Assembly (NCBI GenBank): GCA_027491435.1
Contig: JAOZFG010000007.1
Span: 1 to 11,913 of the forward strand
Direction of reading: 5' to 3'
Length of the DNA: 11,913 nucleotides
DNA from: Thermoproteota archaeon
GTDB lineage: Archaea > Korarchaeota > Korarchaeia > Korarchaeales > Korarchaeaceae
Part shown: positions 9,136 through 11,913 of the stretch, one piece after another
Numbering within the stretch: position 1 is the stretch's first letter
Layout: each line of letters opens with the position of its first letter
Position numbers and translations under genes: made by a program
The notes under the pieces: model-generated
Told to the model about the DNA's origin: nothing
Databases searched by the model: none
What the model saw: the letters and a program-made list of their open reading frames with translations, nothing else

Positions 9136-11913
9136 ATGAATGCTAACACATATAGCCTGCCAATTAAGGAAGTTGAAGTGAAAGACCCTTATGAGACCAT
9201 TAAAAGGGCGAAAGAGGGCAAGGTAGTGCTATCCGGTCCCAGGTGGTTGGGGAAGACGGAGATCGCCAAAAAGGTAGCTGAGGAGAAAGGTTGGACCTAC
9301 TGCGACAACCTCGAAAGCCTGGAGAGTGCTCTAAACGAAGGTGAGAAGGGGCTCGTCCTGGACAACTTCTACAACATTGTCTGGGAAGCCCTCCTGAGAG
9401 GCGATGGCCAGGGAGACGGCGAAAAGCATCCGGTGGTTGAGGCCCTAAGCAGGGAGCATCTGGCGGTCCTCTCCCTGTACGAGCTCGAGTGGACCCTGAA
9501 CAGCTTAGGTAACCTAGGGTACGGTTGGGCTGAGAAGGTGGTGGAGAAGCTCAAAGGTGATAAGCTGATCCTGCCGAAGTACGAAGAGAAGCACTTGGAG
9601 GGCATGCACAGGATCCTGAAGTTCTCAGTTTGCGGGCTGGAAGTGAAAGAGAAGTTCAGGTACAAGGGGGAGAGCGTGCACGAATTCAGAGCCAAGATAA
9701 GGGCGGGTAACGGGGATATAGACTACAGTACACTGATTCCAAAGGCGATAATTGCCGAAGAAGCTCTGGGGGTAGTCTTCCTTAGGGAAAACGAGTACAT
9801 TAACATAGTGGAGAGGATTAGGGATTTTCTGGAGGGGGTTGGGGCCTTTCAGCAGGCTGAAAGTTTCCTGAGAATGGTCAGGAACGTGCCTGTGGTCGTC
9901 GGGCTCAGCCCCCTCACAGGGGTAGTGGGGGCCCTGGCGGCCTTATTCCTTGCCCTCGCCTCTCAGAGAAGGCAAGAATTCCCTATAACGGCGTTGATAC
10001 ACAGGATGCCCGCCTACATGGTTGAGGAGGTGGAGAAGAGGCATGGGGTGCTCCCCAGGACCTATTCCAGCGTGTCCTGTCACCCCATCAAAGTTGAAGG
10101 CGAGGTCCAGGTCAACGAGAAGATCTTGAACTCCATTAGAAACGTGGAAAGGGGTATAACGGACGTTCTCAGGGAAAATGTGTCCTTCCATTGGGATAAT
10201 AACGGGTTCGCCGACCTAGAAAAGCTCAAGAAGTATCTACACATAGAGAGGAGCGAAGAAGGTAAAGATAAGAAGCTGGTGGACATGTTAGAGATGCCGG
10301 AGTACCGAAAGCTGGTCTTAAAGGTGTTGAAGAGGGCGAGGGATGACGTGGTGTTCGTTACAGGCCCTTCAGGATCCGGCAAGACTTACCTGCTCTACTT
10401 CGCCGCCAAGGAGATGGAAAAGCAGGGAATACCCTACAGCTTCCCTAAGAGGAGGATCTCTGAGCTCGACAGCTTTCACAGCAATTATGGGATCTACTTG
10501 CTGGTCGACGACCCGAGCTATGATGAGTTCAAGGCCATCGTAACCTCTCATGATGACCACAGGAAATACGTGATAGTGGCTGTGAGGGACTACGTGCTGA
10601 AGGAGTATCTCGAGAGGTACCTCAGGGAGATTAGGGGGGAGGGGAGGTACCACGAGGCCGGCGTGGAGAAGCTCTTGAGTAGAGCCGTTTTCATAGAGTC
10701 CGAGGACTACATCAGGTTCCTGGCCGAAGGCCTCTTCAGGAGTGTGGAAGACGAGGCCCTCCACATTCTAGTTGAGAAGGCCACGAGCTCCTGGGAGATA
10801 AACCTTGAGGAAGACTCTCTGAAGGGGAAGTCGCCCCTAATGTATTACGTGGCCCTGTTGGCCAAAGAGCATGAACAATTGACTAGAGAGGTGGCTGAGA
10901 AGCTTCCTAATAGCCTATTAGAGCTTGAGGCTACCTTTATACGCAGGGCCATCCTTAGAACTGAACCTCCCTACAGCGGGGAGGAATATGAGGATTTCAT
11001 TAAGGGGTTCGTCTTCCTGATACCCTTGGTGGCCTTGGGCATAAACTCGAGGCTTCCTGAGAGCCTCTTCGAGAGGCTGAAGGAAGAGTCCCTCAAGGTT
11101 GCCGAGAAATACGCTGGGGGACATCATCTGAACTGGGAAGATATAAGGAGGCATCAGGCCAACAATTTGAGAAATTTTGTGACAATAGTGAGAGTAGATA
11201 GGGATAATTATGTTAAATTATCACACGATTCTTGGGAGATCTTGCTAGATACATCGCCACTCAACAAGGAGTTTAACGCCAAGGGGAAAAGCATAGAGAA
11301 GGTGCACAAGTTCATGGGTGCAGTTGCTGATGAGCTGAAGGACGTGCTAGAGGGGATGTTGAAAGTGAGGGGGCTGGACGACGAAGTAAATCTCCTGAAG
11401 TCTACTAACGATGATAGAGTGAAATTTACGATAGTAACGAACTTGGTGACTCTCCTATCGTTAGACGATAGGGTGCTTGAGAAGTTTGCCAGAGGGTTAA
11501 CCGGCAAATGGTATTATAAAACACTTCCTGATATACCTTACGAGAGATCTAAAGATTATGAGTTTAGGGTCACTTCCCTACATTTGTGTAAGAACTTGGA
11601 CAGGTTACCGACTCTGGTAATAGACTGCTTGATATGCGAGAACTTTTGGAAGTTCACGAAGGATCAGGTCAGCAAGCTTATAGAAGCCGCCAGAGAAGGC
11701 GTTTCACCTGCCGCTAAAGCCCTTGGATGGATAGCTATAGCTAACAAAGATTTAGCTAATTTAGCTGTGAGCGGGCTTATAGAAGCCGCCAGAGAAGGCG
11801 TTTCACCTGCCTCTTTGGCCCTTGGATGGATAGCTATAGCTAACAAAGATTTAGCTAATTTAGCTGTGAGCGGGCTTATAGAAGCCGCCAGAGAAGGCGT
11901 TTCACCTGCCTCT
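9136..11913 (+). CDS. Large tandem P-loop / STAND-type NTPase with C-terminal HEAT-like tandem repeats (3'-partial, at least 926 aa)
   Basis: Hand translation from ATG 9136 finds no stop to the window end. Motifs: GPRWLGKT (9235-9258) with GLVLDNF (9349-9369), hydrophobic helix (9886-9963), GPSGSGKT (10363-10386), IYLLVDD (10492-10512), VIVAVR (10570-10587), GKSPL (10825-10839), LSHDSW (HD at 11224-11229), and 33-aa repeats from 11677. Confidence 0.9.
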   Translation, partial: MNANTYSLPIKEVEVKDPYETIKRAKEGKVVLSGPRWLGKTEIAKKVAEEKGWTYCDNLESLESALNEGEKGLVLDNFYNIVWEALLRGDGQGDGEKHPVVEALSREHLAVLSLYELEWTLNSLGNLGYGWAEKVVEKLKGDKLILPKYEEKHLEGMHRILKFSVCGLEVKEKFRYKGESVHEFRAKIRAGNGDIDYSTLIPKAIIAEEALGVVFLRENEYINIVERIRDFLEGVGAFQQAESFLRMVRNVPVVVGLSPLTGVVGALAALFLALASQRRQEFPITALIHRMPAYMVEEVEKRHGVLPRTYSSVSCHPIKVEGEVQVNEKILNSIRNVERGITDVLRENVSFHWDNNGFADLEKLKKYLHIERSEEGKDKKLVDMLEMPEYRKLVLKVLKRARDDVVFVTGPSGSGKTYLLYFAAKEMEKQGIPYSFPKRRISELDSFHSNYGIYLLVDDPSYDEFKAIVTSHDDHRKYVIVAVRDYVLKEYLERYLREIRGEGRYHEAGVEKLLSRAVFIESEDYIRFLAEGLFRSVEDEALHILVEKATSSWEINLEEDSLKGKSPLMYYVALLAKEHEQLTREVAEKLPNSLLELEATFIRRAILRTEPPYSGEEYEDFIKGFVFLIPLVALGINSRLPESLFERLKEESLKVAEKYAGGHHLNWEDIRRHQANNLRNFVTIVRVDRDNYVKLSHDSWEILLDTSPLNKEFNAKGKSIEKVHKFMGAVADELKDVLEGMLKVRGLDDEVNLLKSTNDDRVKFTIVTNLVTLLSLDDRVLEKFARGLTGKWYYKTLPDIPYERSKDYEFRVTSLHLCKNLDRLPTLVIDCLICENFWKFTKDQVSKLIEAAREGVSPAAKALGWIAIANKDLANLAVSGLIEAAREGVSPASLALGWIAIANKDLANLAVSGLIEAAREGVSPAS
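11677..11913 (+). repeat. In-frame 99-bp tandem repeat (33 aa, HEAT-like), 2 full units plus 39 bp, running off the window
   Basis: Units start at 11677, 11776 and 11875. The unit is LIEAAREGVSPA[AK/SL]ALGWIAIANKDLANLAVSG. Units 1 and 2 are identical at 95 of 99 nt. Confidence 0.97.

Follow-up and report, generated by a model that had tools for sequence, protein, structure and literature searches.

Fungal NLRs carry, behind a STAND NTPase, sensor domains made of near-identical WD40, ANK, TPR or HEAT units with hypervariable sites and length polymorphism, as set out in the sections of the fungal survey that treat these repeats (PMC4986451). The same sections give a criterion for arrays of high internal conservation (HIC), namely units at least about 80–85% identical over at least 100 amino acids (aa) of repeats (PMC4986451). 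Bacterial NLRs, too, have been noted to contain internally conserved WD and TPR repeats (in the part of bioRxiv 10.1101/2020.01.06.895854 that concerns them), and HIC NLR-like proteins have been reported from all domains of life, with nSTAND1–3 named among their ATPase domains in a figure legend and with WD40 repeats in most of the archaeal examples covered by the relevant passage (PMC13449251). Prokaryotic STAND sensors are characterised, in the pertinent section of another study, as mostly alpha-helical with TPR-like repeats (PMC13581612). Here, we analyse a korarchaeal contig of 11,913 bp (JAOZFG010000007.1 of assembly GCA_027491435.1), referred to in its entirety as the window and as C22 where it has to be told from other contigs of the same genome. 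Its last gene, an open reading frame (ORF) of 926 codons at 9136–11913 on the forward strand with its 3' end open at the contig end, encodes an NLR-like STAND NTPase, P0001, that runs into a C-terminal array of near-identical 33-aa repeats. On balance, and with some reserve, we take these repeats to open the C-terminal sensor domain of an NLR-like STAND NTPase from an archaeon, in an array that evolves as HIC arrays do.

P0001 resembles the fungal HIC NLRs (the WD40 proteins HET-E, HET-D and NWD and the ANK, TPR and HEAT proteins of Podospora) in placing superstructure-forming repeats behind a STAND NTPase. A preliminary description of the sequence had compared it to HET-E-like fungal NLRs, and the comparison holds: a STAND NTPase is present, near-identical units vary on helix B, and relatives differ in unit number. 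The locus is an expected kind of object, the HIC NLR-like kind having already been published for all domains of life. It departs from the fungal proteins in that its host is archaeal (the genome encodes the PolD large subunit, DP2), its NTPase is of the nSTAND3 type rather than NACHT or NB-ARC, its unit is of a 33–39-aa two-helix kind that Pfam repeat models do not recognise, and it has, in addition, an N-terminal P-loop domain as well as a hydrophobic segment. In the Avs families and in bacterial NLR-related proteins, a sensor of alpha-helical repeats likewise follows a P-loop STAND switch on its C-terminal side, and Avs4 and Avs5 are among the fold matches, but P0001 has neither a PADLOC Avs match nor a recognised effector, nor does it lie in a defence-island context within 9 kb. 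The portions of the Avs literature that deal with the sensors do not describe them as arrays of near-identical units.

The 99-bp repeat at the contig end

Tandem Repeats Finder located the repeat at 11676–11913, with a period of 99, 2.4 copies and 97% matches. The start given in the preliminary description, 11677, is right for the DNA-level unit (11677–11913, period 99), whereas the protein-level array begins 9 nt upstream at 11668 (V-S-K) and comprises, on the forward strand at 11668–11913, 2.5 units of 33 aa (aa 845–926). Within each unit, helix A occupies positions 1–9 and helix B positions 13–25; a lower-confidence AlphaFold2 (AF2) model of P0001 predicts helices at aa 857–869 and 890–902, in the same register as in the relative P0004.

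Base-by-base comparison confirmed the central observation of that description, a 99-bp repeat whose units differ at four nucleotides that all lie in two adjacent codons, none of them synonymous. Unit 1 (11677–11775) and unit 2 (11776–11874) differ only at 11713 (G/T) and 11716–11718 (AAA/TTG); they share 95 of 99 nt and 31 of 33 aa and show zero synonymous differences. The variable codon pair, in frame with the ORF, reads GCT AAA in unit 1 (11713–11718, forward strand; A860 K861) and TCT TTG in unit 2 (11812–11817, forward strand; S893 L894) and corresponds to unit positions 16–17, the fourth and fifth residues of helix B. Unit 3 (11875–11913) extends for 39 nt, all of which match unit 2, and its last codon is indeed the TCT that had been reported as its first variable codon (11911–11913, forward strand), the contig ending directly before the second. 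Since the window is the whole contig and ends in the array, it affords a single full pairwise comparison, as had been stated from the outset. Measured by the HIC criterion, the identity at the locus is 31 of 33 aa, in a visible array of only 82 aa as against the 100 aa specified.

In 1,000,000 simulations, four independent differences among 99 sites fell into two adjacent codons with a frequency of 1.3e-4, so the clustering is non-random, provided that the changes were independent; the statistic means little if one complex mutation or micro-conversion produced all four. Outside the two variable codons there are 0 changes in about 23 synonymous sites, and inside them 4 of 6 nt have changed, which argues that the flanks of these codons are much younger than the codons themselves. 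Conversion around variants that were retained or imported would account for such young flanks better than a clock-like divergence would, as far as one comparison of sequences can suggest. At this locus, with its 2.4 units, selection on the variable codons is putative.

The same four differences might have arisen by a plain recent tandem duplication followed by a single complex mutation, whether a substitution of several nucleotides or a short patch of conversion, the residues concerned having no role in recognition, and we give this explanation a smaller but not negligible share of our credence. No more than 2.4 units can be seen, one multi-nucleotide event would be expected to leave just such a cluster of four changes in 6 nt, the fact that all four are non-synonymous is uninformative by itself (P about 0.32), and position 16 is not a hot position in the relatives. 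Against a single event it can be said that the change from AAA to TTG alters all three bases and is accompanied by a fourth change three positions upstream, which is unusual for one event, if possible. Also against the duplication account, three separate lineages of the relatives described below share near-identity of units, helix-B-biased variation and differences in unit number, with position 17 jointly the most variable.

It is unlikely, in our judgement, that the array is an assembly artefact, that is, a collapsed or chimeric repeat at the contig end in which the codon-pair variants are alleles of co-existing strains. The contig does end in the repeat, its last codon being the first variable one of unit 3, and breaks of the assembly graph are typically of this sort; the assembly (1.64 Mb, 99.46% complete) consists of 43 contigs with 2.54% contamination, and the remainder of the array lies on no other contig. 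Both variants, on the other hand, share one contig, in which the 99-nt phase is kept and the reading frame is unbroken, and the relatives come from independent assemblies that hold real multi-unit arrays of the same type. Short-read assembly could have affected the order of units at the contig end, but both variants must exist in the reads even if that order is wrong. A contig end immediately after the TCT of unit 3 is also what would be expected from a branch of the assembly graph at a variable site. No small-subunit (SSU) rRNA was found in the assembly, despite the 99.46% marker completeness; such a gap is typical of metagenome-assembled genomes, from which repeats and rRNA operons drop out, and is consistent with an array cut at the contig end.

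Searches of the genome for the rest of the array gave nothing beyond C22. With the 99-bp unit as query, blastn-short matches outside C22 were at most 22 nt long, which is chance level in this genome; the further loci or donor cassettes with the same unit that the preliminary description had proposed to look for were thus not found. The protein P0001 and its repeat tail had no paralogue in the genome by tblastn, and the C-termini of seven relatives led to no 3' end of the gene, the best tblastn match outside C22 (E 0.006) being an unrelated Ala/Glu-rich ORF in the middle of contig C16. A motif scan of all 86 contig ends returned C22 only.

We also considered, and rejected as very improbable, a diversity-generating retroelement (DGR) that uses one unit as template and mutates its adenines in the other. 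STAND proteins are known DGR targets according to a preprint (bioRxiv 10.1101/2023.09.22.558884), and at three of the four differing positions unit 1 has an A and unit 2 another base, the opposite case being absent. The fourth difference, however, is at a G, 25 of the 28 adenines of unit 1 are unchanged, both copies are coding units of one array, and a reverse transcriptase (PF00078) was not found in the 99.46%-complete genome.

Repeat arrays of the relatives

P0001 belongs to a very rare, unannotated, archaeal-associated family of the nSTAND3 type with roughly ten known relatives. A full HMMER scan of 1.84 billion cluster representatives yielded 14 proteins at E ≤ 1e-3 and six at E ≤ 1e-10. 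The full-length relatives among them are P0002, P0003, P0004 and P0007, the first three with E values from 1e-136 to 5e-121 and about 40% identity to P0001; P0016, P0017 and P0018 were added from 90% clusters, and one partial homologue carries a source label that assigns it to a Bathyarchaeota archaeon. A word-index protein search retrieved nothing with the whole of P0001, nor with region 836–926 against proteins of 30–508 aa, and only P0004 and P0002 with region 560–926. At the DNA level, 40 related genomes (20 of the same genus) gave 0 matches; two scans of the GTDB species representatives found no relatives, and a collection of metagenome contigs contributed one weak locus that matches the P-loop only (L003). 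The ESM Atlas had no usable match for P0001, and sequence searches of the PDB matched P-loop stretches only. Our literature searches found no publication that describes the family, nor one that reports HEAT/PUF-like HIC repeats on an nSTAND3 protein from Archaea, although supplements may list such proteins.

The full-length relatives share a conserved Cys-x-Glu-Phe-Trp motif followed by 1–10 units of 33–37 aa of the same type as in P0001; with the remoter relatives included, unit length ranges from 33 to 39 aa. Pairs of close relatives differ in the number of these units. P0016 equals P0002 plus 70 aa (one 37-aa and one 33-aa unit), with 0 mismatches over the other 1150 residues, and P0017 equals P0007 plus 34 aa, with three mismatches, all within the array. 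Further afield, P0009 has 12 units and P0013 two in proteins that are 84% identical and are separated by a single gap of 350 residues. High internal repeat identity is found in P0008, P0009, P0013 and P0014 as well, the relatives reaching up to 29–30 of 30 residues identical at the repeat offset, and in P0014, where 39-aa and 35-aa units alternate, 29 of 30 are identical at the two-unit offset. The arrays of P0009, P0013 and P0014 thus indicate that self-similar helical arrays recur across the wider nSTAND3 NTPase clade.

The fold of the array is best seen in P0004, for which AF2 predicts stacked helix pairs over aa 867–1148 with a pLDDT (per-residue model confidence) of 84–93, those units that are 37 aa long having a short third helix as well. 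Structural re-alignment of P0004 aa 826–1148 with VIA gave importin-beta (Z 14.0; 306 aligned, root-mean-square deviation [rmsd] 5.4) and Puf4 (Z 13.8; 273 aligned, rmsd 4.1) as the best superpositions, with the caveat that helical repeats can reach a Z near 13–14 without homology, from a common arrangement. Each unit of about 35 aa comprises two or three helices both in importin-beta-type HEAT and PUF repeats and in the P0004 array, but the units of the family match no HEAT, HEAT_PBS, ARM or PUF profile. For the repeats of P0001, Pfam HEAT, HEAT_2, HEAT_PBS, ARM, TPR, PUF and TAL gave no match (for TAL, at E ≤ 1 with the whole protein and E ≤ 10 with aa 769–926), and in P0009 there is one weak TPR_TNPO3_IPO13_3rd match without a separate stretch. 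The HEAT/PBS-lyase-like character attributed to the repeats at first sight therefore survives in part: Pfam recognises neither HEAT nor PBS-lyase, and the P0004 model nevertheless shows antiparallel helix pairs stacked as an alpha-solenoid. As modelled, the array of the relatives is a two-helix alpha-solenoid with no repeat family assigned to it.

For the positions at which units vary, we compared those that are at least 65% identical over unit positions 1–26 ('young' units) in P0016, P0004 and P0017, three close relatives whose arrays are complete; the selection was fixed before counting. It leaves out units 1 and 7–10 of P0016, units 5–8 of P0004 and unit 3 of P0017, as well as four proteins: P0002 and P0007 as near-duplicates of P0016 and P0017, P0012 because it has a single unit, and P0003 because the anchor pattern found no unit in it. 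Extra residue types are most numerous at positions 17, 20 and 21 (four each), followed by 3, 14 and 24 (three each), and positions 1, 4–7, 19 and 26 are invariant. The near-identical units of close relatives vary mainly on helix B, at positions 13, 14, 17, 20, 21 and 24, around a conserved A-L. This variability concentrates on one face of helix B (helical moment R 0.44, reached by 42 of 20,000 shuffles), opposite the conserved small or hydrophobic positions 15, 18, 19, 22, 23 and 26. In P0009, with 12 units of 35 aa, entropy is highest at two residue pairs that flank an invariant Ile-Ala behind a conserved Ala-Leu, with five pair types at positions 18–19 and five at 22–23 among the 12 units and more variation both at position 27 and in the linker.

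Mapping the variable pair of P0001 onto this solenoid, as the preliminary description had advised, gives a divided answer. Position 17 lies on the variable face, 6 degrees from its centre, and is the joint most variable position of the relatives; position 16 lies at the edge, 106 degrees from the face centre, and varies in one of the three close relatives. The pair is therefore partly, not wholly, on the hot stripe of the family.

The likeness to TALE (transcription activator-like effector) repeats that had been suggested for this array is real at the level of the unit: in both, the units (33–35 aa in TALEs) are near-identical in their DNA, and a pair of neighbouring residues differs, here between units 1 and 2. 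It does not extend further. The supposition that a single adjacent pair is the only variation finds no support in the close relatives, which vary at six or more positions (13, 14, 17, 20, 21 and 24), nor does a TALE-like diresidue in the modelled location of the variable residues, which lie inside helix B as its fourth and fifth residues rather than at positions 12/13 in the inter-helix loop. There is no TAL profile match, the array is joined to an NTPase, and the net charges of the repeat domains (-1, -5, -2, 0 and -18) range from neutral to acidic. The array is best read as an NLR-like HIC sensor array rather than a strict TALE-type diresidue code.

A looser, TALE- or PUF-like modular recognition, in which two to four helix-B residues of each unit would read one element of a linear ligand, such as an extended peptide or a nucleic acid, strikes us as highly doubtful for related reasons. 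Near-identical 33-aa units with adjacent variable residues, a P0004 array that fits PUF nearly as well as importin-beta (Z 13.8 and 14.0) and the recurring residue pairs on either side of the invariant I-A in P0009 would all suit it. The known nucleic-acid-reading solenoids are basic, and the charges of the present repeat domains run the other way; neither TAL nor PUF is matched in Pfam, the variable residues sit within a helix and not in a loop, the relatives vary at more positions, and Z values near 13–14 may show just the common arrangement of helical repeats. We would attach scarcely more weight to the stronger proposal that the array is a reprogrammable reader with a code at positions 16/17 and 20/21/24, in which shuffling of units would rewrite the specificity of an archaeal STAND immune switch; if it were true, TALE/PUF modularity would have a natural protein counterpart here, coupled to an NLR-type trigger.

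Domain order and fold of P0001

P0001 opens with a P-loop domain and leads, by way of a hydrophobic segment, an nSTAND3-type NTPase and a helical region in this order, to the array of two-helix units, which are 33–39 aa long across the family. The small N-terminal P-loop domain (aa 1–160; 9136–9615, forward strand) carries a Walker A motif G-P-R-W-L-G-K-T at aa 34–41 (9235–9258), in which G34, G39 and K40 are invariant in five of five aligned family members. AF2 predicts alternating strands and helices here, an alpha/beta domain with a pLDDT of about 70–92, and in P0016 the best nSTAND3 stretch falls in this domain. It is a candidate effector or second NTPase. The hydrophobic segment (aa 253–271; 9892–9948, forward strand) has a Kyte–Doolittle 19-residue maximum of 2.11 and low AF2 confidence; a maximum of 1.46–2.20 recurs in the same place, at aa 238–279, in all five relatives examined. 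The segment may be a membrane-inserting helix or part of an effector. It contains Pro and Gly and is followed by basic residues. None of the libraries searched has a name for either the N-terminal P-loop domain or the hydrophobic segment.

The central STAND-type NTPase (aa 394–520; 10315–10695, forward strand) has a Walker A motif G-P-S-G-S-G-K-T at aa 410–417 (10363–10386) that is invariant from G410 to T417 in five of five sequences, and an acidic Walker B at about aa 453–458, a hydrophobic run followed by D-D. Pfam assigns aa 394–459 to a STAND-type NTPase: the profile nSTAND3 (PF20720) matches aa 402–459 with 28.0 bits, a narrow margin over the cut-off of 27.2, and ATPase_2 and AAA_16 fall under their cut-offs on this domain. 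The same profile is above cut-off in P0016 and P0017 and in three of six remoter relatives (P0017 47.2, P0016 31.5, P0009 33.0, P0010 35.2 and P0013 31.0 bits). No NCBIfam model scores above cut-off on P0001. Foldseek searches with two whole-protein models returned NRC3, CED-4, ZAR1, NLRP9, Avs4 and NOD2, mixed with two-ring Clp/Hsp104 AAA+ proteins, and VIA re-alignment gave Avs5 (Z 9.6, rmsd 22.2), NRC2 (Z 8.4) and the NB-ARC of NRC1 (Z 8.2, 371..711). The AAA+ proteins ClpC, ClpB and Hsp104 reach Z 8–9.4, a tie with the STAND matches (Z 8–9.6), so the STAND assignment rests mainly on the profile matches. For ARC-like helical or winged-helix modules after the NTPase, by which STAND proteins differ from classical AAA+, the fold matches are likewise tied with AAA+, and the pLDDT of the model is low over aa 550–840. 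The helical stretch that links the NTPase to the repeats contains a family-specific motif, H-D-S-W-E-I-L-L-D (aa 697–705; 11224–11250, forward strand), invariant in five of five sequences.

We infer, by analogy with Avs and NLR proteins for its later steps, the following way of working for such a receptor. Recombination between units would duplicate, delete and homogenise them, and a few exposed helix-B positions around the conserved A-L would stay different, under selection at this locus as well, probably forming a stripe of ligand contacts. Binding of a ligand, perhaps a foreign or a self protein, to the solenoid would release the NTPase switch for NTP-dependent oligomerisation, which in turn would activate the putative N-terminal effector or a membrane-directed output, in what may be an immune or conflict function.

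Several observations weigh against reading the repeats as a fast-changing sensor array on an NLR-like protein. At the locus itself there is one full unit-to-unit comparison only, and the four differences could be a single event of the kind set out above; position 16, as mapped above, is off the centre of the face. The surface exposure of the variable helix-B positions is derived solely from helical periodicity. Among the relatives, the differences in unit number all come from metagenome assemblies, in which repeat collapse could create them; the variation in P0009 is more scattered, with a mean unit identity of 67% and a helical moment that falls short of significance (reached by 2933 of 20,000 shuffles); and the Pfam repeat families have no match on the units of P0004, P0016, P0017 and P0003 either (E ≤ 0.1). 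At the level of the protein, the tie with Clp-type folds counts in the same direction, as does the failure of Pfam, NCBIfam and PADLOC to recognise an effector domain in P0001. PADLOC gave no convincing match to P0001 at all (best E 0.002, 14.9 bits), nor to P0004, and no recognised defence genes were found in the 9 kb upstream of the gene, with PADLOC run on the neighbours as well.

Genomic surroundings and significance of the family

The genes of these 9 kb look unremarkable and encode a DUF2848 protein, a coiled-coil protein, membrane proteins, an esterase, a PadR regulator and a class-II amidotransferase. The coiled-coil ORF (1988–2527, forward strand) is 179 aa long and repeats an internal R-I-D-D-(L/T) motif; it matches Pfam HSBP1 (1.7e-12) and, by composition, many coiled-coil models, PADLOC ZorA, JetC and LmuB included. 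A long ORF antisense to it (1966–2457) is probably its shadow. Between the esterase and membrane-protein genes, about 1.3 kb (5630–6957) hold no convincing ORF, the longest being 97 and 68 aa on opposite strands and overlapping; this region has no Rfam family and no tRNA, only one weak 19-nt direct repeat, and scans of the whole window for Rfam families and tRNAs gave no matches. Opposite the repeat array, an open frame of 82 aa (11664–11912, reverse strand) has no independent support and is in all likelihood a side effect of the repeated, Ala-rich coding sequence.

Fungal NLRs gain new recognition specificities quickly, through near-identical sensor repeats in which a few contact residues vary. 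P0001 and its relatives add to this picture an archaeal-associated, nSTAND3-type family with an unusual domain order, in which the switch comes after an additional P-loop domain and a hydrophobic segment. Because its 33–39-aa helical repeat is invisible to current profiles, surveys that rely on repeat profiles would miss the family and so undercount HIC receptors. If the array is a fast-evolving sensor, the family would provide a small, tractable case in which to learn what archaeal STAND proteins sense.

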